NCBI GenBank assembly: GCA_002633005.1
Contig: NMRA01001104.1
Coordinates: 1 to 54,319, forward strand
Direction of reading: 5' to 3'
Source: Phoronis australis
Lineage: Eukaryota; Animalia; Phoronida
Length of the DNA: 54,319 nt
Made by a program: the position numbers and the translations under genes. Of the stretch, positions 8,113-42,700 are shown piece after piece. The notes below the pieces were generated by a model. That model had not been told where the DNA came from. It saw only the letters and a list, made by a program, of their open reading frames with translations, and searched no databases. Every line of letters starts with the position of its first letter. Within the stretch, counting starts at the first letter, position 1.

Positions 8113-8510
8113 ACTACCCACGCTGTGACACGTGACCTACTGGGCCTGATTTGAACCGATAACAGTTGTTCTCAAGTTCGGATATCCTGTTTTAACTCAG
8201 TAACGGACAAGCTATATTTATAACAATTATTGACCTAAAACAATGTTGTTTTGCTTAGAACGAGCTTAACGCCTCACTTAAGAATACTTGAATATTGTTA
8301 ACGATTTTGCCATGCAATCAGTTTTTGGGGTGAGTGTAATCAACGCTGGGTATTGGAAAGCAGCGTCAACAGAATGCTTCTTGATGTCATTTAGTCTATG
8401 GGACTGAGTCTGGGATTAAAAAAGGTTAGCATGTTTTTGCAGAAAACCAGAGAAGGCCACTGAAATGACATTACTAAAATTTCCGGCTGAGGATACGTTC
8501 AGAATTTATC
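8113..8510 (+). repeat. ~398-bp direct repeat, copy 1 (left flank of Gypsy fragment)
   Basis: ACTACCCACGCTGTGAC...CAGAATTTATC matches 12160-12556 with about 13 substitutions and 2 small indels by eye. Confidence 0.95.
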
Positions 8511-11500: not shown

Positions 11501-11812
11501 GTCCACCCCCCACCACGCCGTCGCACCTTGCTCAAGGACTTGGCTTGCGCTCCATCGCCACTGGCCTCCACGCCCCACCCTGTTCCAGGACCGACGCCTT
11601 CGTCACCCACCCTAGTTGCCGACGGCGCACGGCATTTGGATCCCCCTGCGACGTCGTCTCCGCCGACGCCGGATCCTCCACTCCAACTTCCTCCGCCGGC
11701 AGCAGCCCCGAAGTCGCCGGCGGCACCGGCTCCGACGGACTACACGCCGCCGCCACGACGTTCCCTACGCGAGAAGAAACGACCTGCGTGGCTCGGAGAT
11801 TTCGTGCCGTAG
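8511..11812 (+). pseudogene. pol: Gypsy pol pseudogene (probable end of protease region, RT, RNase H, integrase)
   Basis: RT motifs DAWNGYHSIPL, TTFITPWGRYRY, PQG, CVDD; RNase H TDWS and DHKPL; IN zinc finger LHSAHQG...CEHC; catalytic core ADYF, SSDDGPEF, SNCRAE. In-frame stops near 8877, 9765, 9918 and 10784, and a frameshift near 10380. Confidence 0.93.
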
Positions 11813-20174: not shown

Positions 20175-20409
20175 CAGAGGCAGATCCACGTTTTCAGTAA
20201 GAGGGGCGGGTTTAGGATTCACGCAAATCCGAAGCGCGTAGCGTTACGCGTAGGGAAGTTCGGGAGTGATTTCTCCCCTCCCGTGTCAGATTTGTTTTGG
20301 TTTTTAGTACCAGATTTCGTTTTCCTGGTGATAGTTTTTTAAATTATTATTTTTGATGTTGTCCCGAGTGGGGGTTGAAACCCCTGAACCCCCGGTAGAT
20401 CCGCTTCTG
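20175..20409. mobile_element. MITE-like non-autonomous DNA element
   Basis: Imperfect terminal inverted repeats CAGAGGCAGATCCAC / GTAGATCCGCTTCTG (12/15 paired), with AAAAG on both sides as a possible target-site duplication. Confidence 0.5.
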
Positions 20410-23105
20410 AAAAGTTTTGGACATCTCACAATGTGCAGATTGTCTAACTGGCCAAGTGTCTACCAAACTGGTGTGTATGTAGAAATGCCATTTTTGTGCC
20501 TTTGTTTTAAGAAACTCACGGCTTTGCTAACAACTGGTTGATAACATTTGCTGACTACAAATTGGTCTTAATAGTCTTCCATAGTCCATTCAGAGGTGGT
20601 TTCGGGTTAGTGAAAGAATTGCAGATAGCTGTTGCATGAAACCAAATTTAAGTGTTTTCAGGTTGGCTTGCCACGACGTGATTACATAAGCATCGTGCTC
20701 TAAAGAGCTGCGAGTCTAACCAAACTAGCGTACACTTCTAGTTTGAGTAAAGAACAAGTTAAGGTCAAAGGTCATTTGTCAATGTGTGGGCTCAACCAAA
20801 ATTGAATTTCTTTGACAAAATGTGGATTTACACTCACGTTGAATCATTTGGCAAGTCTACCAACATAGGTGGGACTTCCGTTCCACAAAAAGGTGTCTCA
20901 AGGTTTTGCATGTTGCGGGGAATGTTTCTACAGATATTTGTGTTTTTGTTTTGAACCAGAGGTCCCGCTTTTTATATAAATTCCGATTTTAAAATCAGTT
21001 TTTCCGTTTTTTTTCTCGAATTTTGACCGTAACAAATTTTGCAAAAGGTGTTCAAAATAACATTTGTCTCTCCTTTTTCGATTTGTTACTCTAGAAAAAG
21101 GAATACATGTACCCTTACTCTGGGAAATAACAGTATTGATAACAGTGTATTCCAATATCACTTCTTTACTGTAACACACACAACGTACACGTATCGGGAT
21201 CACTAATATTTGCTTTCTTATGGTTAGGTTAATGTCTTGTTGTTGCTGCCTATTCTTTTAAACCGTTTTAAATCTACTTTAATTGCTGACCTTCTTTGGA
21301 CAAAAACTTGATAATTTGGGCAAACATATTCATGTTGCTCTAATTTAGTACAAGGATGTACACAAACATTTGAAATAATTATTTTGAACCTATGTCACCG
21401 GGTTATATGAACCCACTCTTTTAAGATTTTTGTCAGTGACCCTACAGTTTACCTTTGGATGCTCTCGTAGATTGACAATTTTATATGGCTTAAATAAAAG
21501 ACCTGAACTCGGGATGGATCATCTTCCTGAAAATGTGTACATTGGCTACTGAAGCCAAACTGCTTTAGAAATATGAACATTTGTTCACATACATTTAATA
21601 ATGTACATGTATTTACACAATGGTGGTTATTGTGTCAACGGGATGTCCCAAGTATATATCCTAATATTCAATTAACAACAAGATATCCTTAAAAACAAAT
21701 AACAAGTAGATATCCTTACAATACAAATAACATGTAGTTATCCTTACAATACAAATAACAATTAGATATCCTTATAGTACAAATAACATGTAGTTATCCT
21801 TCCAATACAAATGATNTAGTTTTTTAAATTATTATTTTTGATGTTGTCCCGAGTGGGGGTTGAAACCCCTGAACCCCCGGTAGATCCGCTTCTAAAAAGT
21901 TTTGGACATCTCACAATGTGCAGATTGTCTAACTAGCCAAGTGTCTACCAAACTGGTGTGTATGTAGAAATGCCATTTTTGTGCCTTTGTTTTAAGAAAC
22001 TCACGGCTTTGCTAACAACTGGTTGATAACATTTGCTGACTACAAATTGGTCTTCCATTGTCCATTCAGAGGTGGTTTCGGGTTAGTGAAAGAATTGCAG
22101 ATAGCTGTTACATGAAACCAAATTTAAGTGTTTTCAGGTTGGCTTGCTACGACGTGATTACATAAGCATCGTGCTCTAAAGAGCTGCGAGTCTAACCAAA
22201 CTAGCGTACACTTCTAGTTTGAGTAAAGAACAAGTTTAGGTCAAAGGTCATTTGTCAATGTGTGGGCTCAACCAAAATTGAATTTCTTTGACAAAATGTG
22301 GATTTACACTCACGTTGAATCATTTGGCAAGTCTACCAACATAGGTGTTATGCTAGAAAAAGGAATACATGTACCCTTACTCTGGGAAATAACAGTATTG
22401 ACAACAGTGTATTCCAATATCACTTCTTTACTGTAACACACACAACGTACACGTATCGGGATCACTAACTCTTGCTTTCTTATGGTTAGGTTAATGTCTT
22501 GTTGTTGCTGCCTATTCTTTTAAACCGTTTTAAATCTACTTTAATTGCTCACCTTCTTTGGACAAAAACTTGCTTAATTTGGGCAAACATATTCATGTTG
22601 CTCTAATTTAGTACAAGGATGTACACAAACATTTGAAATAAATATTTTGTACCTATGTCACCGGGATATATGAACCCACTCTTTTAAGATTTTTGTCAGT
22701 GACCCTACAGTTTACCTTTGGATGCTCTCGTAGAATGACAATTTTATATGGCTTAAATAAAAGACCTGAACTCGGGATGGATCATCTTCCTGAAAATGTG
22801 TACATTGGCTATTGAAGCCAAAATGCTTTAGAAATATGAAAATTTGTTCACATATATTTAATAATGTACATGTATTTACACAATGGTGGTTATTATGTCG
22901 ACGGGAAGTCCCAAGTATATATCCTAATATTCAATTAACAACAAGATATCCTTAAAAACAAATAATAAGTAGATATCCTTACAATACAAATAACATGTAG
23001 TTATCCTTACAATACAAATAACAAGTAGATATCCTTACAATACAAATAACAATTAGATATCCTTATAGTACAAATAACATGTAGTTATCCTTCCAATACA
23101 AATGA
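20332..23105. repeat. Tandem block duplication 20332-21814 / 21817-23105, probably uncollapsed haplotypes
   Basis: Near-identical copies, each ending at a single N (21816, 23106). Copy 2 lacks about 220 bp. Both end in a ~28-bp minisatellite (ATCCTTACAATACAAATAACATGTAGTT). Confidence 0.9.
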
Positions 23106-24411
23106 NTTCACATTTAATGAAAAAAATTAGAAGTTTCGAGTTTTTTCTCAATATTAAATTCTACAATAAAATGTGTGGAAAAAGGTGCATGTAAATATTT
23201 TTATTTACTCAATTACACTCATGCTGTTTCAAATTATACTTATAAAACACTACATTGACCAGGAATATGAACAAGATTGTATTGTATTGTAATCATGGTT
23301 CATTGTTGAAAATCAACAAGTAAAGGTAAACCAACAATGACTCTCCGTCCCTTAAATGTATGACTGCGAATTACGATTTTCTTCAACATTCTGTTTGAAC
23401 GCCCACATGATGACAATAAACTCCATATAAATAAACCTGTTACATTTCCAACATGCGCCTCCATCACCTCAGGAAAACGATAACACGTGGACATATCACG
23501 TGAACATACAATATAAGAGACACCTACGGGAACATCACCTGTTTGAGTAATTCCAAAATGTGTTTAATACGTGTTGCTGAATTGGGAAATCATTCAATAC
23601 ACGTATATTTAAAGGGGAGTGTTCCAGTATTTAAAGTCACAATTGTAAATATGGTTACGTGACGAACATTTGCAGACGTGTATATTTTCGCATCTGTACA
23701 TGTTAATGATGCGCATTTCCGCTCGTTTTAGTTGAGAATCTCATAAGCAGATATTGACGCAAGTCAGTTTAGACAAAACATGATCACTATGCTCATCCAA
23801 TACAACTCAAACTGTGTTCAAGGTTATATTGCATCACCACCCAAAGTAGCCACCACTGTGAGATACAGTTGACCTATGCATTATGGGTACCCACTCAACT
23901 GTCGCCATATGTTAAGAGGTTTCCAAGGCAACCCCGCCCACATTGGAAGTTTAGCAGTTAGAAACGCAAAGTGAAGTTACGATTTTTCAATATTTTCGTG
24001 ATTTTTTCAAGTAGCAAAACTCACATGGTGTTCTGAAAGTATGAAAGTAAGGGGAGATGTACCTTTCAATTAAGCTAAATCTTTTCTTTTCTCTGATTGT
24101 AATGACTGTACTATATTGGCAAAAATCCACTCACTCGACAAACTTACTTTGACGCAGTTACCAAATATAACGAAGATCATGAAGATATAAGAAGCAATAA
24201 AAGAATGTGCTACAGCTCTGTAAATAATGTAATTGCGAGTAAAATGCAATAATAGAAAAATGAAAACCGTTCCCAGTCAGAGCCCCGTAACTGCAGATTA
24301 AATAGTGACACATTGGGGAGCTCAAAATTCAGTGAAAGCTTTGACCAATAGCAGATGTAGCTTCTGGGTCATGCTTATTGGTGATTTTGTGACCCATAAA
24401 ATGCCCGGGTT

Positions 24412-24762
24412 TCAAAAAGGTCTTCCGTTGGGGAAAATTTCCATGCATAGTTGTTTATCACTGTCGCTTATGGAGTCGTTCATGGAGTCGTAGATGGCCT
24501 CGATGCAAATCCCTTGTTCAATCGAACGAGGGGCAATTTCAGCAATCGAAACCGTATGAAAGGGTGGAACAGCCGGAAAAATCAACGCGTGCACCACGGC
24601 CACACTGGCTTCCTGTCGCTCGTCAGGTACAAAGCCTGGACAACCGGAACTACCAGTACCAAAATTTGAACTGGTTTTGTAAAGGGCTCTGCAACTATCA
24701 TCTAACTTCGGGTAGACGTCGAAGCCAAATCTATCTTGTGACCACTGCTTTAGCTCGTCATG
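24412..24762 (-). CDS. Terminal exon of FAM111-like protease (catalytic Ser)
   Basis: Acceptor TATTTCAG, phase 0. HDELKQWSQDRFGFDVYPKLDDSCRALYKTSSNFGTGSSGCPGFVPDERQEASVAVVHAL...RSIEQGICIEAIYDSM...EIFPNGRPF*. GSSGCP and SIEQG resemble FAM111 GASGSP and IIEFG. Confidence 0.88.
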   Translation of the reverse strand, partial: HDELKQWSQDRFGFDVYPKLDDSCRALYKTSSNFGTGSSGCPGFVPDERQEASVAVVHALIFPAVPPFHTVSIAEIAPRSIEQGICIEAIYDSMNDSISDSDKQLCMEIFPNGRPF

Positions 24763-27700
24763 CTGAAATAGACAAGTTTATAAGCGTGGATGGTGCTTAA
24801 GATAAAGTTTTATAAAAAGAATACAATTGACTGGCTTGTGTGACAAGATTATTGTAGTTATATTTGAAGGAGAATCATGTCCGCTAACAGGTGTACCCTA
24901 TCGCAAGCCGTTCGGCGGAAAACGTCGCCAGTAATGACGTACGAAATTACCACCGAGACTTCCCTCGTGTTTTACGACCGTGATCGTTATACATGTATTG
25001 AAAGAGTAATTTGAGGGTGAGGTCTAAAGAAGTTGTGCTTTCGTAGTTTTACACTCGCATTTTTTGCTCCATATCTTACGCTCGTATTAGTAAGCTCGTA
25101 ATTTTACCAAGACCGGGTCGTTATATTTAGGTCATGCCAGTCAACGCCACTTAAAACTCAGTTGATACTGTTTTGTGGCGCAAATGGTTTGTTATTCAAA
25201 TGTATTGAATAAAGAATTCGCGACTTACCACCATCATTTAGAAATTCGACATCATTACACCCCCCCCCGAAAACCGTGTTGAACCTAATATGCTTTTTGT
25301 AATGCCATACACTGTGCGACTGTGTGCGTCATCTGCACGAACTGCTAGGAGTAAGAGAAAGAACATTCGCCTAAAATTTGATAGTGAGAAAACACGGTAA
25401 CACAAAAAGAAACATTATCAGACTGCCTGCTAGACGTACATTTTGCCACCTCGGTGTGTACTAAAACGGACCAAATTCAAATGCCTGTGATGATTGGGTC
25501 AGCGAGTCAAAAATATCAGCCAATCTTGGATATTTGTCAATCTTTTGCACTTACATACTTTGCAACCGAGATTTTACGAGCGTAAAATTACGGGTGTACA
25601 AAGACTGCTTCAGACCTCATGCGACCTTCAAGTCAATTTGTCATTGGATTACTTTACCAGCCAAGTTTCGGTCGTAAAACCGAGCGTAATTACTAATCAA
25701 CAACATCCGTTGTGAAACACGAGTGAAGTCTCTGTCGCAATTACTAGCCTAGTTAGGGGCGACACTTTCCAACGAGAGGCCAACCATAGTACCCACCAAT
25801 CCACTGGCAACGTGCCACAATACTTCTGGCTGGTTTACAAAAAACTGTTCCTTATATGGTCAAGCAAGTGTTAGGATCGCGCTATCACCAAACTGTTCCA
25901 TGTATAGTCATGTATATGAGTGGGTTAAGCTTGTACCACACTGTTCCTTATATGGTCATATGTGAATAAAGCATTCATCAAATTGTTCCAAATATGGTCA
26001 TGTAGATGTGTGGTTTAAGCTTGTACCGAACTGTTCGCTATATGGTCAGACTGTTCCATTTGTTTGGATTATGTTTGCATCAAACTGATTTGCAGGGAAG
26101 AGATTTCTTTATGTATGCCACAACCTTTGCAAATGAACTCGGGCATAGTAGTTCTTAGCACATTTTGGCAATAGTTTCGTGTATTTGCAGCGGTGCCTTC
26201 TTCGCTGGTTTAGTTTGTGATTCATTACATCCATAGAACAATACACTTAAACTTAACACAGTTTTCATCTTGTGCCTCACAGTTTATTTGTGCATGTGAC
26301 AGGGTCGAATAGTATTGCAAACAATATCTGATCATTCAATACCACAGGCCTACCTTTGCGCGAAAGTCGCTCGTCTCCATTTGCACAACACCACACCTGA
26401 TATCAGCAACTTTAAAATCGCCGTCAGGGTGACCAGCAAAGTGAAGTTGTGTTTCTTTGTTTATCTTCTTAAACCTTGTAAGAGGTGGCGGTAGAGAGTC
26501 CAACTTCTTGCAGCCTTCTATTGAGCGGGGAAGAGGTGCCTGTAAGTCCAACTTCAAAACAGCCACGTCCAGATCATCGTTAGAATACACTAGTGAGTCG
26601 ACACAGCAGCCGGCAACTGACTCGAGTCCAAGCCATTTTGATTTGTCGTAATAAAAGAGCACTGCACTCTTTTTGACTGAAACGAACAAGTTGACACGTG
26701 AAATTCCGAACAGTGTAACCTATTACACTGTTCATGTGTATGGAAATAAACAGTGTAACTGGTTACACTGTTTATTTCCATATACATGTAACATACACTG
26801 ACTTAGGTAAACCAGCAAACTCTATATTTGAATTCAGCGTTTAGAAATATATCTAACATCGTATATCAACACCGTTTCCAAAGGGATTTCAAGCATGAGT
26901 GTAGTCAAAAGTAGCCTTTTAATAACCCGTGCAAGTTGTACGCTAACAAAAGGTGAAAGTGCTTTTTGGAAACATGGATGCATATTATGTTGCTGAGGGC
27001 TATCTTTGAAAGAAGTGCTGTCACTAAAGAGGCCACCCTCATTTTAAATACCACAGTAAATAAATAAACAGAAAAACTACATGATAGCGACCTCCACATT
27101 TTTTTAGGCATAACAAAGACACAAAACTTGAAAAAGAACGACAAATTGAAAATTTAATCAATGAAAAGAGACATCTGAGGTCAAGTAATAAAACTAACGA
27201 AGGCCCATGGGTCTCTGGTCAGGTTGTTTGGATCTCGTGAGAGCAATGCCCCCGTCTATGTATAACCTCACACTGAAGTCGTGATCGGTTCACTAGTGCG
27301 ATTGCTACTCAAACTCAAATCAACAAAATTCCGATATAAACCATACTCTGTTATGAGAACGGACTTTATTAACACGCCTATTTGAGAGTGTGAAACGCCC
27401 ATGTATTTTAATCTTTATTTACATATTGGTTGAGATAAGACGTTCTCCATCACGGCTTTACATCTGATGATAACGCGCCTAAACAAGTAATATCCATGAA
27501 CTTGATTTGAACCAATCATGAAGTGTCATTTCTTCTAGACAAGCCTTGTCTGAGATGAGACTGACGGAAAATGGCCTCGACCAAAACTTTGTGTAAGAAC
27601 AAACAGTTAAGTAAGAGATAATTTTACCTTTTGTTCTGAAAATAACATACTGTAACATAACAGTGTGCACTTGTTCGATCTCAAGAACAGTAAATCGTAC

Positions 27701-30700
27701 TGAATTTATGTTTCTAACTATTCATTAGGTGATTTGAAGAACGTGGACAGTTTCAGGAAACAGTGACAGTGTGTTTGGGGAAAGCATTTGACCTTTCTTT
27801 GGATAATCAGAAAATTGTAGCCTTTGTTTTTACCGTCGTCAGTTTATAGCATTTTCAAACGCGAAATATTGAACTGGAAGTAATTTTGGTCTGCTAGAAA
27901 TACTCGCAGAAATAAACTCATAGAACCTTGTCAGCCATAACACTAATTCCAAGGGAAGATTGCACTGAAAATTGGCGTTCAAGGGCAATTGGCTTGCGAC
28001 ATTCTCGCCCCAAAAACTGACGGAAAAGGAGTGGGTCTAGGCTGACGGCAGTTTCTGTGCTAAATATATGTAGGAAATGCTTGCCACGCATGGCGTTCAG
28101 TAGTACTGTAGTTCCTGGAAGTTGATGTGATTAAATGAAAATAAAAAAATTGGTCTCTGCTCTTATCTACCGGGAGACGGGAGCCCCGTCATTTTCAGAG
28201 CATAACCTAAGACTTGTTTAGTTGGGAATGTTGGCACGATTACGGGTACCTCTCAGACAAGCAAATTTGCCAGTTTTTAGGAACATTAAGCTGAGTGGCA
28301 GAGCATTACATTTTTTGTCTCGTTTCTTGCACAGGTGGATTCTTGAACTAGTGATTTTAGGTATAAAAATGAGGCAAAAATTACACTATTTGGCCATTTT
28401 TGGCGTCTGATTTTTAAGGTGGACTCGACAAGACTAAGAAATGACATGGTTGACTGTTTATAGAAAAACCATTAAGTATACTTTTTCTGAGTTTTGCCTT
28501 TTTTCAGGTGTCACGATACTGTAAACAAGACCCAGCTTTATTAACCCAGACCAGTGATGACGTCAAAATCAGTTACTTGGTCTGTACAGCTGTGGTCTTT
28601 GCTGGTCCAGTTAACTCCAGCATTGCATATGCCGAGCGTAGCGCTCTGCACGTATTTAAAATGAACCAGAGAAAGGTTTCGCAGAGCGTTACTCAGCCAC
28701 TAGTACACCAATCAGGGAATAGAATGCACTCACGATCATCGCCGAGTTTTTCAGCAACGTGCCAATTGGTCATAACGTAGTCAGGGCCAACGCGGAAACC
28801 TGAACCTGTGCCGGTTTGTCCAACAATAAGAGCTACTGATGAAAAGGCTGTTGACAAAGATGTGTGGAAATGTGCCGACATCGTCTCTTTGTTCAAATCA
28901 AATGCAGGACCGAAGCTACACCGGGGCGGCAACTTTCTGGAACTTGTGACAGGAAAGTAATCTAGAAGAAAACAAATGTCAAACCATTTTCCAATATCAT
29001 CAATGATCTCTTCAGTAAACATCAACGTGATGTTTATGTCTCTGTTATATTGTGTCACAGGTGTTAGTACCTGTCAAACACGAAACAATCTACAAAGGTT
29101 GACCAGTTCGCTCACACAAGGAAACTGATATACCAAATGAGGTGGCGTGCTTTCATTTCTGAAGAAAAATCGAGGAAGTGACGAGCGGATGACATATTTG
29201 AAAATGAAGTGAAAAAGATTTGACATCAACAGAAATTCAACATATATTTGAACAAATTCCGTTTTAGTGGCAGAGAACCACTTTGAATCATGCAATTTAT
29301 TCTGTTCTTTATGTTGCACTATGCCACTTTAACAATGGACTCGTTCGATATCTGGACCAACCACGACTTATTAGAAACTGTTGTCTTCTAGATTTGTAAA
29401 CCAAATGGGGTTCTTTTGCCAAATCGTGGCACTCCTTGTGTAATGAGCACGATTAGGACTGTATTAGATGCAAAATAAAACTAAAGATGGTGGTAATTAA
29501 ACTAAGATTACAATTAGAAATGACGGTAAAATTGAGCGTTGTTTATCTGACATGTTTTAACTAAGTCACTTGGTTAGTGCGCACAGTATCAGAAATAAAA
29601 TAATGCATTAGACAAAAACTGCTTCTTAATCTATTCGGCATGACTTCGATGGGTTAACTTATCAAACCTAAACTACATGTAAAAATTGGTAGTCATCGAG
29701 TCTGTTCACACCATGTGTTATTTCACAATCGTTGATTTCAGCGAGGTGCCATCTGCAGGTACATGTTTACGAACTACAACACCATCTATTTTAACATCAT
29801 ATACATATACGGACGAATGTTCAGACCAAGAACACTGTGCCCAATTATCAGTCGTAGAACAGCTTGGGTCAATTGGTTCCATACACACTGAACTGAATTT
29901 ATGGTATCAACATCTCATTTAGTGCATTGGGTGAATAAAAATCGATAATTTATTATTTAGAAGCTTGATGGGACTAATCATTCCAATTCGTAGTTCGTTA
30001 ACAGAGAAGTTTACAATATATGATTGTGCGTAAATAGTATAAAGCCAATATTTATGACTTATATCCATACATGTATACCTGATAGCCTGATGTCAACACC
30101 CAGAATTCCCAGCTCACTCTCGTCTCGCTGTGCTCTTATGTTTATATCTACCCAACCCTCGGGTACTGTTGCCCCGGAAGACTGCAAGTAGTGCATAACA
30201 TGTCTTCCGAACTCTAAGGACGGATCAGTTGTGGGTGCGACTCTCGCTTCAGCTCCTTCAGCAGAACTCGCACGTTGGTTTTCCTGCCTTTTTTTCTTGT
30301 GATTCTATAACCGATATTAAAAAAGTGCAATACAATGCTACCATCGGCTCGGTATGTACACGCGATTAGGAAGAAGCAACGCATAAAATTTAAAAAGCAT
30401 AAAATTCGTAAAAGTTTATCCACTTAATGAATATCGGAAATAATAAGAGTATTGACAAACTAGTTAATTTGGTTGATGAAAGATTATTTAGTTGTGAACA
30501 ACATTCACGACAACCAAAATTTATCGTCAAAATGACAAACTAGAGTGTACCTCGAGGACCTCCTTTATTTTTTTAATAGTTTCGATGTTGTTAAAGAACA
30601 CGTTGGCCTCTTTTCCACAAACATCGTAAGCTGTTTCTCCTCTCTGAAAATTGACAAATGATTATAAGTATTGAATCAAAGGACACATATACAGTATCAG

Positions 30701-33700
30701 CAGGTACTCATAATGGATAATTCTGAGGATATTGTTGAACTTAAGATTCCGATTTGTTTCCATTTGCATAAGTTCAATATCATCATTTAAAGCAAGAGTC
30801 TCAGTAGTTATGTGTGTTCCTTGTATAGCAGTTATTGTCTTTGTGGTACAAGAATGCTACTCAATGTCAAGTGTTTGTTTTAATATTAATTTGGGACACT
30901 GTCTTTTTATACCTGCGTCTGGTAGTATAAACCACATGAGCTGCTGATTCGTGTACTGAGCTTAAAGAAAGACACGGTGCTCTTAACTCTTGCTGTAAGC
31001 TTTGTCATCATAGGGGCTCAACACGTTTTTGTTTCTTGTTCAAACATTGACATCTACCCAAAACTAAACTCATAACTTTACATGTAGTTTTTTTATAAAT
31101 TTCGAGGCATCCACCTGAGAAAAATTTTGAATCTAATACAAAACTTGCCGCAATGCCGCACCTTCTGGTTAAAACGTCACCTATTAGCCAGAATAAAAAA
31201 GAACGTCACAAGCCAAGCTGAAGTCCGTGAGAGACGGACGCAACCTCCCTAACTCAAGTAATTTTTATTCCATCTTTAGATTCAAAATTTTATCCGAGTC
31301 CTAAACATCCGAGGAGAACGAAAAGGTAATACTCCACTTAAGTTACTGACTTCTTTTAGCTGTGGGTTCTTCAAATTTTTAAGCAATCACATAGTAACCT
31401 GGTTACTACATCAAGTGAATAGTTTAAATTTGTTAAAAATCCCGTGTCAATAGTCGCTTAGAAGTTTACAAAAAAGTAGAAAAGGACTTTGCCAGCAACC
31501 GTGGACGCTGTTCCATTGTACCGGGACATATAATTACATATACGTGTACAACTGTAATGAGTTATGATGCCTAAAAACACTGGTTACATAAACATTGACA
31601 AACATCCAATGCAGACATTGACAGCATACATGTACCACACAATTTGACTGACACTCTTATCTTACCGTATTAACAACCGTCGCATCGACACCCGTTTTCA
31701 GAAGCAGTTCAACAACTTCTAGATGGCCACGCGAAGACGCGCTGTGCAGCGACGTGTTGCCTCCCTACAAGAAGTATTGAAATTTGTTGACAAACAAAAA
31801 ACAAGTTTGCACGATAATCAATTGCTGAATAAACAGCAAATGAAAATAGTTTAAATTTGTTAAAAATCCCGTGTCAATAGTCGCTTAGAAGTTTACAAAA
31901 AAAGCAGAAAAGGACTTTGCCAGCAACCGTGGACGCTGTTCCATTGCACCGGGACATATAATTACATATACATGTACAACTGTAATGAGTTATGATGCCT
32001 AAAAACACTGGTTACCTAACCATTGATAAACATCCAATGCAGACATTGACAGCACACATGTACATGTACCACACAATTTGACTGACACTCTTATCTTACC
32101 GTATTAACAACCGTCGCATCGACACCCGTTTTCAGAAGCAGTTCAACAACTTCTAGATGACCACGCGAACACGCGCTGTGCAGCGACGTGTTGCCTCCCT
32201 ACAAGTATTGAAATTTGTTGACAAACCAAAACAAGTTTACACGATATTCAATTGCTGAATAAACATCAAGTGCAAATGAAAATTAAATTGTCAAAAAATA
32301 AACCGAGTTCAAAATGAAACTGCTAAGACTTATTTCAGTCACATAACAAGGACATTTTGTTGCCGAACAATTTTGGGCATTTCAGAATAGAGCGATATGA
32401 CACTCTCGGTAAAGACGGACGAGAACGGAAATAGTGCATACAATACATGTAGAATTTATTTTCAAGATTCAGGGTGGTATGCCCTAATTGTTCACGCATC
32501 ACGTGGTCGTTAGTGTTTCTCCATAGCATCTGACACTCCAGCGTGTGTTGTTACTTATTTGTACACTTGATTTGTAAATTTTGCTCCTAGATTTCACTCA
32601 AGTTGTTTCAAATATGTAACCAACAGCTTTGTATGTGGCGCATGCTCTTTAGGTTGTCTAGGGCCCAAGGAAATGTCCGATTTGGCTACCGTCGTAAAAT
32701 AATATCTCAAAATAGCTGATCCGTCTCAGAAACTATTTTCATGCACTGTTCGATAACACACTGTACTGAATTGATTTTAAAAGATAACATTTTTTGCATG
32801 ACGGGCTGTCAAAAAAGATTTTCACGATTTTCATCAAATTTATACCAAAAAGTGAACAGATGTTTAGAAACAGGACCAAATTTTGAGATCTCATCTTGAA
32901 GATTTATACGAAATAAAATCTGATATCATTGTTTTGTTATCAACGTACCTTTCCTTTCAGATAAATCACGTGATGTAAATAGTGGGAGACTAGTAAAGAG
33001 GTAAAATCAATTTTTGTAGTTTACTTACAGAAAGTATAAACATTAACTCTGTTAAAATCCACACTTTTAGACACTTTTCATAATACGCAGACTACTCAAT
33101 TAGGGCCCACAAAACCATAACACACGTGTATAATGGTAAGCGAAACTGCAGCAAAGATATCATGTTGCTGGGTGGATAGTGTCAAGACACAATCACCTTT
33201 ACAACAGGATTATGTTTTACAATCACGTGGCTCGCGTTTATGTCAATGACAGGCGGTAATGCAGACCGTGCCATCGGTGTCAACACTCAGCAAATGAAGC
33301 ATCTTCATGCAAAGCGTTTTTAGATTCTTGGCGAAAGCCTATATCGCAGAATTATCTGTTGGCGATCTGATGACATTGAACCGAACATCGGCTGGCCGTC
33401 GCATGAGTGATGAACTCTTGATGTGTGGCCGATATGTTCACTAGACTCTTTAGATTGTCGTAGTGTAAGAAACGTCGGACAAGCAATGGTTTGTATCTCA
33501 AAATGTCTTAATCACATATCAGGTGATGCTGCCACTGACATTTATTCGACCACTAGAGCATACACTGTATGAGATTTGTTTACTTGGCACATTGTAATGC
33601 ACTTTATTTCTAAAGAAGAATAGTAAACGAAAATTTGTGAATAAACAAAGAAAGTTGTTGCCCAGTGCAGAGCATTGTGTGTTTTACGCATTTAGGCACT

Positions 33701-36700
33701 TGCGCCTATATCCAAAATAACTGCCATAAGGAAATTGTCCTACTCAAATGTTTCGCACAAACGCATGCATTATGCTTCTCTTATAGGCGCAGGTGGATAT
33801 CCTTTCATGTTTTGTAGGCTTTAGAATATTTCATTTTACGTATTGGCCTCAATACGCGCATATAGGGTAAAAATACATGAAACACACAGACACACTGGCT
33901 TACATGCCAAATATTCAGAATTTACAGAAGGAAATCACAAAAAATATTACTGACACCCCACAGCTATTGTCTCAGCTCTACAGCATGCTTCACTAATTTT
34001 TCTAGGTAGAAGTGTCCTAAAACATCAAAATGCTAAAATACTTAGCACTTTTTGGAATCTACGGAACTTGTTGCTTGGGGGTCTAGAAGCTCAATGTTCT
34101 GAAGATGTTTTTTAATAATTGGCAGATTTTATTCGTACATCGGAGAATTGCCGATTTTCGTGGAAGCATAAACATGCAAATCATAGAGCAACGAACCCTT
34201 CACACCGTCAATCAAATATTAAAACATACACACATTTCCAGTTCTGTACATGTTTGTTTATACAATTTTGTCCATCTTTCTGTAAGGAGCTCCTTGGCAA
34301 TTTATCCAGGTATGCGCTCAAGAATGACTTAAAATTTGCACGGAAAAGATAATGGAAATTGATGTTTTAACAGCCGAAAGTGGGGGCCTAAAATTCACAA
34401 TTTATAAGAAAAAAGATTGTGCAAGTGGCGGAGGAAGGTGGTTATACAAAGACCCGTGGCACATTTTTTAAATACATTTTACAAACAACCCATGCCAATT
34501 GACGTCGTATGGAGCTCGCAAGTTTACATCATTACAGAGAACATAAATCAAACCACGAAATTAACATACATAGTCGTGCAGTGGGATTAAAAATAAGACA
34601 CGCTGAGAGTTTTATTGCAAATTCAAGTAAACTGCAGCCCTCTGGTGAACGTTTTGTTTTTCATTTACTAAAATGCTCACACCGAAGAAATTAAAGTAGG
34701 TTGCACCATGGCCATCGATAAAATTATATGCTACCCGATCAATCTCACAGAAAAGGAAAGTGATTGAATTATACTGTAATATAGCATCTTTAATAATGAT
34801 GGAAGTGACTAAATACGAAAAGGGTTGCCATTCTATTAGTTCTTACATTTGAGACTATAAAGTGGAATGCGAATAAATATTTTAATAATAAACCATCCCC
34901 AAAACGCTATTACCGAAAGAGTTTTAAAACTTCCACATTCTCCACAGAATACACTCATTGCAAACATCATGGAAAATGTTACGTTAAAGAACTCAGTCTC
35001 ACAACTTGAAACCCCCAAACCGTTCTTCTCACTACGTTGTTGAAATTTGAACAGTTTTTTTTTTAATATTATGATTCGATTTAGTCTCAGTCGTAACATG
35101 AAATCCAGCTTAAGAAATGCGAGTCTCTTATCCTTCCTGAAGGTATGAATATTTTTGTCCATTCATTCAAGTTTTTGCGTAATTGCATTTCTATGAAAGC
35201 GCACGTCTAGCGGAAGGTTTTGACCAGAACGTTTATTCCAAAAAGTATTTGATGCGCTGCACCGAGAACTGTGTCCTGGTACCCGAAATACGATGGTACT
35301 ATGAGGGGTGAACCAAACTGTTTGATGGCTTTCAAACTGAAATGGTTACGTATTTTTTATTTCGTGATCAAGATCCACCATACCAAACATCGCGATTTAG
35401 TCTGGTCACTTTTGTCTTGACCCTCGTAGCATCAACAAAAGGTTTTGAGACAAAAATCCACATCTTGTAGTACTTGGTAATTATCAAATGGTTTTAATTA
35501 ATTAACAGAAGATGAGATTCGACACCTTCTTTGAAATGGTTTACAGGAATGGACATTTCAACGGATATTCATTCATTTTACTCAAAAGGAAACTATTTTG
35601 ATTAATCCTGATCGTAGCACACATTTTGTGTTTGGGCATTATGTATTCCACTTGCAACTGCAACACAAGCGACTTTTTTCGTGGAATATCCTCTCATAGG
35701 CCAGATGAGTGCACAGTGCTGTGCTCTGTTACTATCCTATCGAAAAGTTTGCACCGAACGGACTTGCAACAATGTGACTTAGAAAACTGATTGTTCAAAT
35801 AGTCCCTTTTTAAAGCAATCTTGACTAACAAACTTAAGTGGGGTTCCTAAATGTGCACTGACGTGATTAAAAACCTGCATAAACTTTATGGGATGAGAAA
35901 ATTAAAATCTGTGTCTGTGTTCGGCGCCTTATGGTGTGGTTGGTTTTTTAGTTAGTATGCCAATAGTATGATCACACCAGCGACTCTGGTTTCACTGCGT
36001 GTTCTGGGAAAGTACTTGCAGTGAAGAAGTGACTCTTTGTATAACTCCACGTAAAGAGGTTGTTCATTTTTAAGAGATATTTATTATGAATGAACAATTC
36101 CTCGAACTCAATATTCATTTAAAACACGTTTATTGCAACATTTACTAAGCTCGGAGTGCAGCACTCTTGAGATACCTTGTTTACGGCATTCACCTCACAA
36201 CTGCCTTCATTGACAAGCAGCTCTACGACCGCTGCCTTTCCATTGTGCGACGCCAGGTGTAATGCTGTATCTCCATTCTAAAGTGAACAAAATGAGAGAA
36301 TGCCGGTCATCCTTAAATATAGCGAAGTGGGTGTGTCAAGAGGACGTCACGTTTTATACCTTTCTGTTCCAGAACTTCACCATCAGTTGCATACTTACTG
36401 TATGAAGCGGGTGACTCAACACAGCACGACTACACTTGACATTTAAACTCAGATATAAATGAACGAGATTTCTTAAATGCTGACCTGTTTTAGTCACACG
36501 ATTGATAATATGGTTTTAAATATCACAATTTGATTCTATGTAGTACAACAGAGCCACATTCATTTAGTGAGTGCAATGGAAATACAAGTAAAGAACCACT
36601 GCTCTTTGTACAACTCAGGGTGAAGAGAAAACTGTTCTAATTACTTAATGTCGCGAGCACGTCACGTCAGGTGCAGCGGTGTGTGGCCCTCCTATGGAAA

Positions 36701-39700
36701 GCAGAAGACATTTAATTTGACATTGTTGAGAGACATTAGATTACAAAAATATCAACAAAATTTGTTACTTAATAGTTTTAATCATCACTTGTGTAAACAA
36801 CTAATTCAACCAAACAACATGTGTGTCATTAATTACCTGATCACGTACATCCACTGTAGCGCTGTGTTCCACAAGACACTTCACTGTCTGTGTATGACCA
36901 CACAGTGCTGCATAGTGCAGCGGTGTCCGGCCCCACTATGTAATATATAATGGAGATGTGTGAATGGACGATCAACGTTTAGAGCAAATTAACATACACG
37001 CGGCAAAGTGAACTTGTAAGGTGACATAAATGAAACATTACTGACCCCTCTAAAACGCTACAATACTTGTAATGATTTCAACAGGGAAATGTTAAGTTTT
37101 AGAACAAAACAACAGAGCGTGTTCAGTGTTCCCTGTCTCGTTACAGGCCGGTAACACACAGCAAGTAATTGTGCGCTGTAAAGTGTTAGACAATCAAAAT
37201 AAGGTAGAAAATAAATCTGAAACTAAATGAGGCGATCCAGATCGTCTGAAGAAAACTATTGTTTGACGAAATGTAGAATATATATAGGTAAATAAAACAG
37301 CAATAATGAATCAACTGAAATGTTCAGATGCAGCTTTGGCAGTTCTCTGTTGGAAAGCAGACGACATTTAGTTTGACATTGTTTAAGGACATTAAATTGG
37401 GAAAATATCAACAAAATTTGTTCTTCAACAGTTTTAATCATCTCTTGAGTGAACAACTAGTTCAACCAAACAACCTGTGTGTCATTAATTACCTCATCAC
37501 GGACATCCACTGTAGCGTTGTGTTCCACAAGACACTTCACTATCTGTGTACGACCACACCCTGCTGCATAGTGCAGCGGTGTCCCGCCCCCCTATGTAAT
37601 ATATAATGGAGATGTGTGAATGGACGATCAACGTTTAGAGCAAATTAACATACACGGGGGAANTGTTCGGCGCCTAATGGTGTGGTTGGTTTTTTAGTTA
37701 GTATGCCTATAGTATAATCAGACCAGCGACTCTGGTTGCACTGCGTGTTCTGGGAAGGTACTTGCAGTGAAGAAGTGACTCTTTGTATAACTCCACGTAA
37801 AGATGTTGTTCATTTTTGATGAGATATCTATTATGAATGAACAATTCCTCGAACTCAATATTCATTTAAAACACGTTTATTGCAGCATTTACTAAGCTCG
37901 GAGTACAGCACTCTTGAGATACCTTGTTTACGGCAGTCACCTCACAACTGCCTTCATTGACAAGCAGCTCTACGACCGCTGCCTTTCCACTCTGCGACGC
38001 CAGGTGTAATGCTGTATCTCCATTCTAAAGTGAACAAAATGAGAGAATGCCGGTCATCCTTAAATATAGCGAAGTGGGTGTCAAGAGGAGGTCACGTTTT
38101 ATACCTTTCTGTTCCAGAACTTCACCATCAGTTGCATACTTACTGTATGAAGCGGGTGACTCAACACAGCACGACTACACCTGACATTTAAAATCAGATA
38201 TAAATGAGCGATATTTCTAAAATGCTTACCTGTTTCAGTCACACGATTGATAATATGGTTTTAAATATCACAGTTTGATTCTATGTAGTACAACAGAGTC
38301 ACATTAATTTAGTGAGTGATATGGAAATGCAAGTAAAGAACCATTGCTCATTGTGTAACTCCGGGTGAAGAGAAAACTGTTTCTAATTACTTAATGTCGC
38401 GAGCACGTCACGTCACGTGCACGTCACTCCACGTGCTGTGGAGACAGCATTTACAAACAAAATCACAATTTGTGATTATTTAATTAAAACACGCAATAAT
38501 TAGCCTAGTCACGTATTGTGTTCATCAACCTGTGTGTCATTAATTACCTCATCACAGACGTTCACGTTGGCCCGGTGTTCGATGAGACACTGTACGACGG
38601 CTGTATGACCCTCCCGTGCTGCCAGGTGCAGCGGTGTGCGGCCCCACTATGGAAAGCAGAAGACATTTAATTTGACATTGTTGAGAGACATTAGATTACA
38701 AAAAATACCAACAAAGCTGTTACTTAATAGTTTTAATCATCTCTTGTGTAAACAACTAATTCAACCAAACAACCTGTGTGTCATTAATTACCTGAGTACG
38801 GACATCCACTGTAGCGTTGTGTTCCACAAGACACTTCACTGTCTGTGTATGACCATTCCATGCTGCACAGTGCAGCGGTGTCTGGCCCCACTATGTAATA
38901 TATAATGGAGATGTGTGAATGGACGATCAACGTTTAGAGCAAATTAACATACACGGGGGAAAGTAAACTTGTAAGGTGACATAAATGAAACATTACTGAC
39001 CCCTCTAAAACGCTACAATACTTGTAATGATTTCAACAGGGAAATGTTAAGTTTTAGAACAAAACAACAGAGCGTGTTCAGTGTTCCTTGTCTCGTTACA
39101 GGCCGGTAACACACAGCAAGTAATTGTGCGCTGTAAAGAGTTGGACAATCAAAATAACGTAGAAAATAAATCTGAAACTAAATGAGGCAATCCTGATCGT
39201 GTGAAGGAAACTATTGTTTGACGAAATGTAGAATATATATCGGTAAATAAAACAACAATAATGGATCAACTGAAATGTTCGGATGCAGCTTTGGCAGTTC
39301 TCTAACGGAAAGCAGACGACATATATTTTGACATTGTTTAAGGACATTAAATTGGGAAAATATCAACAAAATTTGTTCTTCAACGGTTTTAATCATCTCT
39401 TCTGTGAACAACAAGTTCAATCAAACAACCTGTGTGTCATTAATTACCTGAGTACGGACATCCATTGTAGCGTTGTGTTCCACAAGACACTTCACTGTCT
39501 GTGTATGACCATGCCGTGCTGCAAAGTGCAGCGGTGTCAGGCCATCCTATGTAATATATAATGGAGATGTGTGAATGGACGATCAACGTTTAGAGCAAAT
39601 TAACATACACGGGGGAAAGTGAACTTGTAAGGTGACATAAATGAAACATTACTGACCCCTCTACGACGCTACAATACTTGTAATGATTTCAACACTCAAG

Positions 39701-42700
39701 TTTTACAGGTGATTTTAAAACGTTGAAGTAAGAACAGAACATGGTGTAGACGTCGACTGTCAGAAATTACTGAGCGCCTCCATAACTTCACAGTGACCCC
39801 TCCATGTTGTGTTTATACATCGGTTTAACGGCTTCCTGTTTAATGTAAAGTTGCAATGTTGAATGGATGATTACCATTAAGAATAGAAAAATATCAACGT
39901 TAAGTCGCCAAATATATTGTTGACACGATTCAAACCTCACTGTTTCTGAAGATGCATGTACGGGGTACAGATTGAAAAATACATGTCTAAATCATGAGAA
40001 ATAAAAAGTGTATTTACACACAACATGTTTAGTTAAACTTCAGATAGTCTACAGCTTTGTAACAAAGATAACATTGTCTTAATTATAAAATCGTCTCAAG
40101 TAGTTTCTATTACCCAGTCTTGCTTGTTGATATTAGCGCCTGCTTCACACAAAACACGCGCCACCTCTGTATGTCCCTCCACTGCTGCACAGTGTAGTGC
40201 TGTGTCGCGGCCCTGCAGAAACAATGAACAAGTTATAGCAAACTTCACAATCATTAACGTCACCGTGAATCTTAATTACTCATCACGGAAACGTTGAAAT
40301 AACACAATTGTACACGCAATTACTAAATCTACTCTCTGTTTATCATGCAATATATCAGTTGTCTTGTAATAGACCATCATTTATAAAGAACAAGTTTACG
40401 TCGCTTTCGTAGTATGTTTGTTAGTGTCAGAATTAATCCTCAGAGCAAAGACATGGCATGTTCATTAAAAATATGGGCGACTGGTTGTAGCTAGAACAAT
40501 CATTGTTATTGACAATAACATGACCATGATCTTCACATTTAATAATCATTTTTAAGAAATCAATTTCATGAGAGTAAATGGTTTAATTCACTTTTCGTTT
40601 TTAGCCAGATGAACAGGACGAAATTTAATTTGCTGCAAAAATGTTGACACAAAATATGATGTAATAGACATTAATGTGAAAGTCAAATATACTCTATTTG
40701 AAAGCTGCAATTANNNNNNNNNNNNNNNNNNNNNNNNNNNNNNNNNNNNNNNNNNNNNNNNNNNNNNNNNNNNNNNNNNNNNNNNNNNNNNNNNNNNNNN
40801 NNNNNNNNNNNNNNNNNNNNNNNNNNNNNNNNNNNNNNNNNNNNNNNNNNNNNNNNNNNNNNNNNNNNNNNNNNNNNNNNNNNNNNNNNNNNNNNNNNNN
40901 NNNNNNNNNNNNNNNNNNNNNNNNNNNNNNNNNNNNNNNNNNNNNNNNNNNNNNNNNNNNNNNNNNNNNNNNNNNNNNNNNNNNNNNNNNNNNNNNNNNN
41001 NNNNNNNNNNNNNNNNNNNNNNNNNNNNNNNNNNNNNNNNNNNNNNNNNNNNNNNNNNNNNNNNNNNNNNNNNNNNNNNNNNNNNNNNNNNNNNNNNNNN
41101 NNNNNNNNNNNNNNNNNNNNNNNNNNNNNNNNNNNNNNNNNNNNNNNNNNNNNNNNNNNNNNNNNNNNNNNNNNNNNNNNNNNNNNNNNNNNNNNNNNNN
41201 NNNNNNNNNNNNNNNNNNNNNNNNNNNNNNNNNNNNNNNNNNNNNNNNNNNNNNNNNNNNNNNNNNNNNNNNNNNNNNNNNNNNNNNNNNNNNNNNNNNN
41301 NNNNNNNNNNNNNNNNNNNNNNNNNNNNNNNNNNNNNNNNNNNNNNNNNNNNNNNNNNNNNNNNNNNNNNNNNNNNNNNNNNNNNNNNNNNNNNNNNNNN
41401 NNNNNNNNNNNNNNNNNNNNNNNNNNNNNNNNNNNNNNNNNNNNNNNNNNNNNNNNNNNNNNNNNNNNNNNNNNNNNNNNNNNNNNNNNNNNNNNNNNNN
41501 NNNNNNNNNNNNNNNNNNNNNNNNNNNNNNNNNNNNNNNNNNNNNNNNNNNNNNNNNNNNNNNNNNNNNNNNNNNNNNNNNNNNNNNNNNNNNNNNNNNN
41601 NNNNNNNNNNNNNNNNNNNNNNNNNNNNNNNNNNNNNNAAACATCAAAATACGGCCGCACAACCATGACAAGAATGTTGCTAAAGTGTATTTTAAAAACA
41701 GAGTTACGTCGTTCCCGTTAACTAAGACCTATTATTGAACTCAGTCTCGACACGTTAGCATATTGCAATAGTAGTACTGTACAGACCAAAATTCTTATGA
41801 GAGCACGGGTTTTGGCCACTCGTATCAAGTCCATGTATGCAACTTGGAATTCCCAACATAAGCGTACTGAGATTTTTTATATGTAGTACACTTCTCAGCA
41901 TATACCAGGCAATTATGAAGCAACTCATGTGGGTCCGACCATAATTTTGTTGTTGCTCCGAAGACAGTTCTGGGCCATGGCAGAATACGTGATAAAACGT
42001 CACAAAAGTGCGACGTTTACAAAAATTCTGGAACGATCAACTAACCAAAGTTTGTGGTGAAAAAAATAAATTATTTTTTTAAGTAAAATGTCTTGATTGT
42101 TCAATTACATTATCTCAGATAAATTTAGTATCGCATTGCGACGCTGCTTGATCCTGTTGTTTTTGTGCACGGTCGAGGTCCCAGCAGGGGATAATAATTC
42201 GGAATAATAAAGTAACATAATGTTTGAACATGCGTCTCGTTTTTCTTATCGCAAAAGACACAAAGCGAGTAAATTAAAACCCTACGTCTATCAATCGCCA
42301 AACGGTGAACACGACTTCTCTTTCAGCAGGCAAGTTTTGAGTTGGTACATGTAGGTATTTCAACTAACATGTACATCTGTATAAACAAGCAGACGTAAAA
42401 TTGTGAGTGATTATTTTATTTCCTATTCGTAAACACCATGAAAACTTTTTACTCCTAGTGTCATCAATTGACTACGTCACTGATTTTTAAAACTCGCTTG
42501 GAAAAAGTACTGTTCCAATTGAAACGTCAGCTAAAGACAATTAGAAGAGATGTTGCGGGTGGCTAAAATACATGTATTGTGGTTGTTAAGAATGCATAGC
42601 ACAGAAACATGGTACTGCATCATTTCTTGCTTTTAACGTCTTTTGATTTCTTTAAACGGCGATGATTCGTAACAACGACCAAACTAAAATTTGCGCCTAC

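Follow-up and report, generated by a model that had tools for sequence, protein, structure and literature searches.

A Phoronis australis gene combining single-repeat ankyrin exons, diverged at binding-surface codons, with a likely C-terminal trypsin-like peptidase domain

The ankyrin exon array and the transcripts that include it

The stretch of DNA analyzed here in full (henceforth the window) comprises positions 1–54,319 of contig NMRA01001104.1 from the Phoronis australis assembly NCBI GenBank GCA_002633005.1, and is eukaryotic DNA with a G+C content of ~38% and scaffold gaps. Its main element is a cluster of seven ankyrin-repeat exons on the minus strand at 36176–39546, all of which are in phase 0 with AG before and GT after them; the exon coordinates proposed in a first-pass annotation of this DNA, made from the sequence alone, were all found correct on recheck. 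A further ankyrin exon, U, lies upstream of the cluster, and the peptides of all eight exons (U, E, D, C, L2, B, A, and L1) match Pfam PF00023 above its cut-off (34–47 bits vs 21.1). Exons A, B, C, D, and E display a TPLH motif, which is represented by TALH in L1, L2, and U, and at the GH turn exon B reads GR in the reference. Pairwise amino-acid identity is 70–82% among A, B, D, and E and 55–64% between these and C. As the exons are symmetric, i.e., in phase 0 and 99 or 102 bp in length, the reading frame is kept whatever their number or order. The A/B/D/E-type exons are spaced ~650 bp apart, and the cluster falls into two near-identical blocks, namely set 1 (35918–37662, with L1, C', A, and B) and set 2 (37664–39618, with L2, C, D, and E; Table 1). 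Within them, A+B of set 1 and D+E of set 2 constitute an older 656-bp duplicate. The sets are parted by a single N, whose right-hand 40 nt recur at 35918 and whose left-hand 40 nt recur after exons A, D, and E.

Table 1. Coordinates of the ankyrin exons, the exons spliced to them, and associated features.
Feature	Position	Strand	Description
Exon U	40114..40212	-	Ankyrin repeat upstream of the cluster; PF00023 E = 9.6e-10; acceptor cag, donor gtaata
Exon E	39448..39546	-	99 bp, phase 0; ankyrin repeat DGLTPLHFAARHGH...RTQ; RNA bin depth 21.8 in X8 (low)
Exon D	38792..38890	-	99 bp; ankyrin repeat WGQTPLHCAAWNGH...RTQ; splice reads D>C at 38646/38792
Exon C	38548..38646	-	99 bp; more distant ankyrin repeat; C>L2 splice reads 191 in X8
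Exon L2	37923..38024	-	102 bp; ankyrin repeat; joints 31763>37922 and 32197>37922
Candidate poly(A) site	37848..37881	-	AATAAA at 37881-37876 and clustered RNA ends at 37848
Single N	37663	.	Exact junction of set 1 and set 2
Exon B	37493..37591	-	99 bp; ankyrin repeat GGGTPLHYAAGCGR...RDE
Exon A	36837..36935	-	99 bp; ankyrin repeat WGRTPLHYAALCGH...RDQ
C' remnant	36662..36691	-	First 8 codons of a C-type exon (EGHTPLHL); remainder gone, 208-bp deletion vs set 2
Exon L1	36176..36277	-	102 bp; counterpart of L2; C>L1 joint, 16 reads in X8
Exon M2	32100..32198	-	Ankyrin repeat, alternative to M1; joints 30643>32100 and 32197>37922
Exon M1	31666..31764	-	Ankyrin repeat, alternative to M2; joints 30643>31666 and 31763>37922
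Linker exon X1	30551..30643	-	Splice joints; open reading frame
Linker exon P1	30079..30304	-	Splice joints; open reading frame
Exon P2	28734..28961	-	Likely trypsin-like peptidase domain begins (GTGSGF...TNWHV); splice joints
Exon P3	26354..26676	-	DLDVAVLKL motif, likely catalytic Asp region; frame open
Exon P4	24412..24762	-	Stop codon and GSSGCP motif (likely catalytic Ser); loose-end consensus of reads at 24733-24762

RNA reads were taken from three runs of the same species, made from samples other than that of the reference, together with one set of contigs from the DNA run X1, and were aligned to 26000–40700 at 95% likeness and to 35700–40300 at 90%. The results below draw on the best-supported entries, viz., 40 of ~490 differences per alignment and 15 of 62 and 15 of 108 splice joints, and absence from these tables is accordingly weak evidence. 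The exon borders serve as splice sites in RNA, and the CT..AC ends of the joints fix the minus strand. A chain of joints leads from C through L2 to either M1 or M2, and on through the two linker exons to P2, P3, and P4 (Table 1), with a reading frame that stays open over 506 aa between exon C and the stop codon. L2 is joined to M1 or M2 by 79 + 14 reads (93 in total) in run X8; each of the two is connected to L2 upstream and to 30643 downstream, and no M1–M2 joint occurs among those listed, so that they could be either mutually exclusive exons or the product of another copy-number or haplotype difference. The A–E-type exons show serial joints in RNA (D>D, D>B, and B>B), indicating that the A/B/D/E-type exons are not mutually exclusive. 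No 5' end of the gene was located within the window.

RNA molecule ends cluster at 37848, 28 nt beyond an AATAAA in the intron after L2, and an AATAAA homologous to it lies at 36129–36134. Alternative polyadenylation likely yields a short, ankyrin-only form that ends after L2 (...AVNKVSQECCTPSLVNAAINVF). At the upstream margin of the cluster, the interval between U and E (39550–40300) has an RNA depth of 120–238 in X8, equal to that of exon U, while exon E stands at ~22; hence, U mostly continues as a terminal exon or 3' untranslated region, and molecule ends at 39577 close off this run-on in X8. Exon U may be part of a distinct gene upstream or of a short isoform.

The spliced reading frame contains, in the order His, Asp, Ser, the motifs TNWHV at residue 271, DVAVLKL at residue 319, and GSSGCP at residue 427, and its C-terminal part is likely a trypsin-like serine peptidase. 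Exon P2 matches Pfam Trypsin_2 with E=0.0044 (18.2 bits, under the cut-off of 27.6); as leads, Atlas features matched P3 to Trypsin/Trypsin_2 clusters (top score 0.91) and P4 to a Trypsin cluster (0.91). PDB sequence searches with P3 and P4 gave nothing meaningful, and protein sequence searches returned no candidate for exon D with 11 intron-encoded residues and, for exon P3, 94 candidates of which none was significant. Pfam scans of 18 + 123 peptides and open reading frames, with exons of <60 aa left out, found no NACHT or NB-ARC domain and no further domain for the gene in the window, and Rfam had no match in the window. We infer that the ankyrin array would form the target-recognition part of the protease protein.

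Divergence of counterpart exons from each other and from their introns

Comparison of the counterpart exons bears out the first-pass counts of six amino-acid changes and one synonymous change between A and D, and of ten and none between B and E: the former pair differs at 10 nt, with codon 30 (GTA/GTC) silent, and the latter at 14 nt, without a purely synonymous codon. L1 and L2 do differ at codons 11–12 (HN vs QS) as had been noted, and also at codon 30 (N/T), which had been missed; all 3 nt that distinguish them are non-synonymous. The residues previously read at codons 1, 3, 8, 11, and 12 are exact (A, W-R-Y-L-C; B, G-G-Y-G-C; C, W-R-L-R-E; D, W-Q-C-W-N; E, D-L-F-R-H). Across the exons, many states are encountered at codons 1, 3, 8, 11, 12, 32, and 33, with frequent two-nucleotide changes and no base bias seen at the variable codons, and the 3 nt by which the C' remnant departs from C all lie in codons 1 and 3. 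Exon B has the glycine codon GGG at the variable codons 1, 3, and 11, and, at codon 14, an Arg where His is conserved; 185 of 242 RNA reads in X8 carry the His codon at this position. M1 and M2, which lie 434 bp apart and serve as a control inside the gene, differ at merely 2 nt, one of them amino-acid changing (S/C), which argues that the effect is specific to the A–E exon type.

The introns aligned between set 1 and set 2 differ at 68 of 1443 sites (4.7%), as against 10/99 (10.1%) for A/D and 14/99 (14.1%) for B/E, i.e., 24/198 for the two pairs together (Fisher p=1.8 × 10−4). Within the exons, six codons were fixed a priori, namely 33, 1, 3, 11, 12, and 31; at an offset of two these correspond to module positions 2, 3, 5, 13, 14, and 33, which we take to be those randomised in libraries of designed ankyrin repeat proteins (DARPins). 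The portion of PMC3602593 drawn on here gives six randomised positions per 33-residue DARPin module, and the numbering used fits the residue numbers stated there. Over A/D and B/E, 13 of the 36 nt in these codons differ (odds ratio vs introns 11.4, p=1.3 × 10−8), a divergence of 36% against 4.7% in introns, or a change about eight times faster; the remaining codons (11/162 nt) do not depart from the intron level (p=0.25). Four of the five codons with at least three states, and five of the 11 variable codons, belong to the six DARPin-equivalent ones (hypergeometric p=0.0017 and p=0.0096, respectively), in agreement with the original proposal that variation is focused on the beta-hairpin and first-helix codons. 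The likeness to DARPin libraries, which that proposal had also drawn, holds in that a constant framework, with the framework codons of A, B, D, and E almost identical, supports variation on the same surface, five of the six equivalent positions (codons 33, 1, 3, 11, and 12) being affected. It fails in that the array here is natural, codon 31 (module position 33) is invariant in A/B/D/E, codons 8 and 32, which DARPins do not randomise, vary, and there are five framework singletons (codons 14, 17, 25, and 28, and the silent 30).

The distribution of change along and within the repeats was likewise uneven. Among A, B, D, and E, variable sites number 1/66 upstream of the exon, 18/99 in the exon (five of them in its first nine bases), and 8/60 downstream. 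Seven of 66 codons have at least two changes against 0.42 expected (p=2.5 × 10−7). By the method of Nei and Gojobori (NG86), the three exon pairs together have 25 non-synonymous differences over 227 sites and two synonymous differences over 73 (one-sided p=0.02), and non-synonymous divergence in the exons exceeds the divergence of the introns (p=4.6 × 10−4). Diversity at the surface codons is far higher than the neutral level, a point in favor of diversifying selection. The earlier interpretation is supported in part, and such selection is likely; the excess of the non-synonymous rate (dN) over the synonymous one (dS) reaches p=0.02 in a small sample.

Variants in reads, copy number, and the status of the two sets

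The RNA reads add states at the variable codons 1, 3, 32, and 33 and extend the variability that had been described from the reference. In X8, the first codon of the C-type exon encodes W in 112 reads, E in 96, and R in 16, and codons 32–33 of the exon preceding C encode DE, TQ, ME, DK, or NE, to which X6 adds GQ; alternative starts of D-, E-, and B-type exons in reads encode VGW, GGL, and ECP. The variants listed inside exons are of several kinds: in A, B, and L1 they fall on the surface codons 11 and 12, R14 in B and S25 in A revert to the consensus, and C and L2 have synonymous polymorphisms. Where a single run has three or more states at a codon, several gene copies are implied, unless the run pools individuals. 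Exon orders unlike that of the assembly are also present in RNA (B>C, A>C, D>D, B>B, and D>E), in a form in which alleles and paralogues are indistinguishable. Among the DNA contigs, one bears a C-type exon starting with IDF behind an intron of the A/D/E type, and another, from run X1, has a 323-bp deletion (38421–38743) that removes exon C and is distinct from the 208-bp deletion of set 1, so the presence of exon C seems to be polymorphic. Contigs of the DNA run pile up on the exons (bins of 108–495 vs 30–58 on unique intron), suggesting many related copies. The intron between A and B, and likewise between D and E, contains a very high-copy element (37086–37393 and 39088–39395), with a summed DNA contig depth of thousands to 27,000, reads on both strands, and many loose read ends at 37204/37243 and 39232/39284.

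The exons compared above had been described as positionally equivalent. That they are counterparts is upheld; their status as serial paralogues is not secured, as they are possibly alleles placed in tandem by the assembler. L2>M1/M2 splicing bypasses three exons that have the same splice sites as D and E, and the joints L2>B, B>A, and A>L1 do not figure among those listed (15 of 62 and 15 of 108). In X8, A-like exons precede the C-type exon in 32 reads and B-like exons do so in 130. Among the 33 read variants listed within both sets, 19 are the letter of the other set. In X8, set-1 letters are fixed at six sites of set 2, and the converse is true at five sites of set 1. In other samples, the differences that separate the two sets hence segregate in mosaic fashion. 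Moreover, since reads differ from the reference by 1–5% across the whole aligned stretch, the 4.7% between the sets may fall in the allelic range. None of these observations amounts to proof, but it is more likely that A/B/L1 and D/E/L2 represent a single segment in two versions than that they follow one another in one mRNA. We think it probable that they are haplotypes that the assembler put in tandem, and give somewhat less than even weight to a tandem duplication that is real and young. The N at 37663 was considered as proof of a false duplication and rejected in that role: a true tandem junction also breaks de Bruijn contigs, and the N alone is hence not decisive. Either way, A/D, B/E, and L1/L2 are recent counterparts, and their comparison keeps its meaning.

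All three single Ns of the window (37663, 21816, and 23106) are situated at the ends of near-identical tandem blocks. The second such block consists of 20332–21815 and 21817–23105, which are 95–99% identical and have the Ns at 21816 and 23106, and each of its copies ends in a 28-bp minisatellite (21636–21842 and 22899–23161). Single Ns at block ends may mark haplotypes tandemly placed by the assembler. A caution follows for this assembly: its near-identical tandem blocks parted by a single N may be haplotypes, and comparisons of 'paralogues' drawn from them are possibly allelic.

Elsewhere in the window, a retrotransposon pol region with a G+C content of 50–58%, reverse transcriptase (PF00078) and integrase (PF00665) domains, and broken frames lies on the plus strand at 8478–11812. 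A piece of open reading frame at 1270–1449 on the minus strand matches the N-terminal domain of argininosuccinate synthase (PF00764, E=2.6 × 10−10) and is probably an exon of a neighboring housekeeping gene. A 30-nt piece at 34493–34522 is covered by >100 RNA reads in X6 and X7, which extend at either end into unrelated sequence; the piece probably matches, by chance or as a repeat, some highly expressed transcript that originates elsewhere.

Competing explanations and relation to known systems

We propose that the locus is an expressed minus-strand gene of one-repeat-per-exon ankyrin cassettes, the surface-codon diversity of which is likely maintained by diversifying selection, an explanation that we hold to be somewhat better than an even prospect. 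Under this proposal, tandem duplication, unequal crossing-over, and patchy conversion would move the cassettes and homogenise their introns and framework, and selection would keep the binding-surface codons diverse while the cassettes evolve in concert.

Several observations weigh against it. Surface positions are expected to be the least conserved ones in any ankyrin repeat, so their clustering of variation is the null expectation and selection is argued only by the excess over intron and synonymous divergence. That excess comes from a tiny sample of four to seven exons in one assembly; the inequality of dN and dS (p=0.02 only) leans on codons with multiple hits; and intron divergence is patchy, with 10–12 differences in some 99-bp intron windows, such that A/D (10) is unremarkable by itself among windows of this size and B/E (14) equals the maximum of them all. 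The exons also conflict with their surroundings in how they group: codons 12 and 32 unite A+B against D+E, with D+E sharing ACT CAG at codons 32–33 and A+B sharing TGT at codon 12, whereas the downstream introns unite A+D and B+E. Sequence exchange between exons is evident from this conflict, and the changes are consequently not all independent. Set 1 bears signs of decay, namely the deletion of exon C and the framework residues R14 and I17 in B and S25 in A, and the sites of R14 and S25 carry the consensus letter in most RNA reads. The reads aligned at 90–95% derive from several copies, so the variants in them cannot be assigned to alleles or paralogues, and the joint tables over-report variants near exon ends, which means that they show wide variation of border codons in expressed copies, not a spread over the repeat. 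Finally, the protease call leans on sub-threshold or feature-based matches, and sequence searches yielded no relatives.

The most substantial competitor, which we nevertheless regard as rather improbable, is a neutral mosaic in which the surface codons are unconstrained and patchy conversion from a larger family imports ready-made differences, with no selection for diversity. The conflicting exon and intron groupings are what it would produce, the multi-nucleotide codon differences are compatible with templated exchange, the pile-up of DNA contigs on the exons suggests many potential donors, and the three or more states at C-type codon 1 within one run speak in its favor as well. However, the donors would have to match one another in synonymous sites (2/73), in the framework, and in the upstream 66 nt (one variable) and yet differ at surface codons, which moves the same pattern of dN far above dS to the level of the family; unselected conversion should, furthermore, homogenise the surface codons too. 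Quite unlikely is the alternative that set 1 (B, A, C', and L1) is an unused, pseudogenised duplicate or a null haplotype that diverged under relaxed constraint. The truncated C' exon, the framework replacements just listed with most reads unlike the reference at two of them, and the splicing from L2 past set 1 agree with such decay; yet relaxed constraint cannot exceed the neutral level, and the surface codons exceed the introns severalfold. All four exons have open frames and intact splice sites, A- and B-like exons occur in spliced RNA, and only four of the 24 A/D and B/E differences are framework or silent changes of set 1 (A codons 25 and 30; B codons 14 and 17).

Two further possibilities concern how the letters arose. 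That the exon sequences are a chimeric consensus of collapsed paralogues, or contain sequencing errors, gains some plausibility from the gapped assembly with its single Ns at this junction and at the other tandem block, the GGG at three variable codons of exon B, and the membership of a multi-copy family. We consider it highly unlikely, since RNA from three other samples matches all exons at 95% likeness or above and uses the exact borders, including the D-type end ACT CAG and the B-type end GAT GAG, and also carries the codon-1 TGG of C and the 5' border proper to B; the differing letters are, moreover, structured at surface codons and non-random. The least probable of these explanations, to which we attach hardly any weight, invokes targeted mutagenesis or a somatic or combinatorial assembly that diversifies the codons or the order of exons in place of germline selection. 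The RNA joints against the assembly order and the many states per variable codon within one run are what it could account for; against it stand the lack of base bias at those codons and the structural variants in the DNA contigs (the 323-bp deletion and the IDF-start C-type exon), on account of which germline variation in copy number and order suffices. Circular RNA was entertained as the source of the joints that go back on the assembly order and was rejected, since it requires a forward joint L2>B, which does not figure in the listed joints.

Conserved repeat arrays that vary at their contact residues represent a recurring design, to which the repeats of fungal NLRs, the zinc fingers of PRDM9, and the leucine-rich repeats of plant NLRs belong; in PRDM9, selection acts on the DNA-contact residues. 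In the part of PMC4986451 drawn on here, the ANK repeats of fungal NLRs (Podospora NWD/HET; Dyrka et al., 2014) are described as having five positively selected concave-surface positions and repeat numbers that vary between isolates. The same excerpt sets the criterion for highly internally conserved repeats at ≥85% identity over ≥100 aa and puts ANK, TPR, and WD repeats of high conservation at <1% in metazoans, and the corresponding part of PMC5100051 has concerted evolution of protein repeats as rare in metazoans. As far as these accounts go, the Phoronis locus is like fungal NLRs in its near-identical repeats with few hypervariable concave-surface positions (inner helix and beta-hairpin), apparent repeat-number polymorphism, inter-repeat exchange, and fusion to a likely effector domain. 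It is unlike them in its animal origin, in its single-repeat exons and conserved introns, in the identity of its repeats, which falls short of 85%, and in its partner domain, a likely trypsin-like peptidase at the C-terminus in place of a NACHT or NB-ARC domain, neither of which was detected in the scanned window. Given the identity below 85% and that no NOD domain was seen, the locus is not classed with the fungal NLR repeats.

Two animal systems offer partial parallels. With the zinc-finger arrays of PRDM9 (PMC4874674), the locus would share a tandem array that unequal exchange keeps homogeneous, with hypervariable contact residues and an apparently polymorphic number of repeats; the PRDM9 repeats, in contrast, form a one-exon minisatellite that binds DNA, whereas here single-repeat exons encode a protein-binding fold. 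Dscam-type clusters resemble it, in the features considered here, in that tandemly duplicated, frame-preserving exons encode a recognition surface, and the single use of M1 or M2 in the listed joints is a further likeness; they differ in that the A/B/D/E-type exons are joined serially and that the diversity here is germline or allelic and not evidently a product of splicing. Searches of the open-access literature turned up no account of such an array of ankyrin exons in an animal, nor of a family uniting ankyrin repeats with a trypsin-like domain.

The fusion to a likely protease, the structural polymorphism, and the multi-copy state are the hints at a role in recognition. We tentatively suggest, as a possibility that is on balance doubtful, that the gene might constitute a germline 'ankyrin binder library' coupled to a protease effector, acting as a polymorphic non-self sensor in immunity or allorecognition, with cassettes that would vary in number, order, and binding surface among haplotypes and gene copies; the host–pathogen conflict put forward in the first-pass annotation is a guess. 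If confirmed, the gene would be a case of the recurring design mentioned above that is built of single-repeat ankyrin exons with conserved introns and a protease fusion, and would furnish a tractable system in which to study the shaping of a binding surface by exon duplication, exchange, and selection. A further gain would be a candidate protein of the recognition-plus-effector kind, from a genome that is invertebrate-like and highly polymorphic, and the binder library, if it is indeed one, would correspond, in an animal and in exon-modular form, to the hypervariable repeat domains of fungal NLRs.

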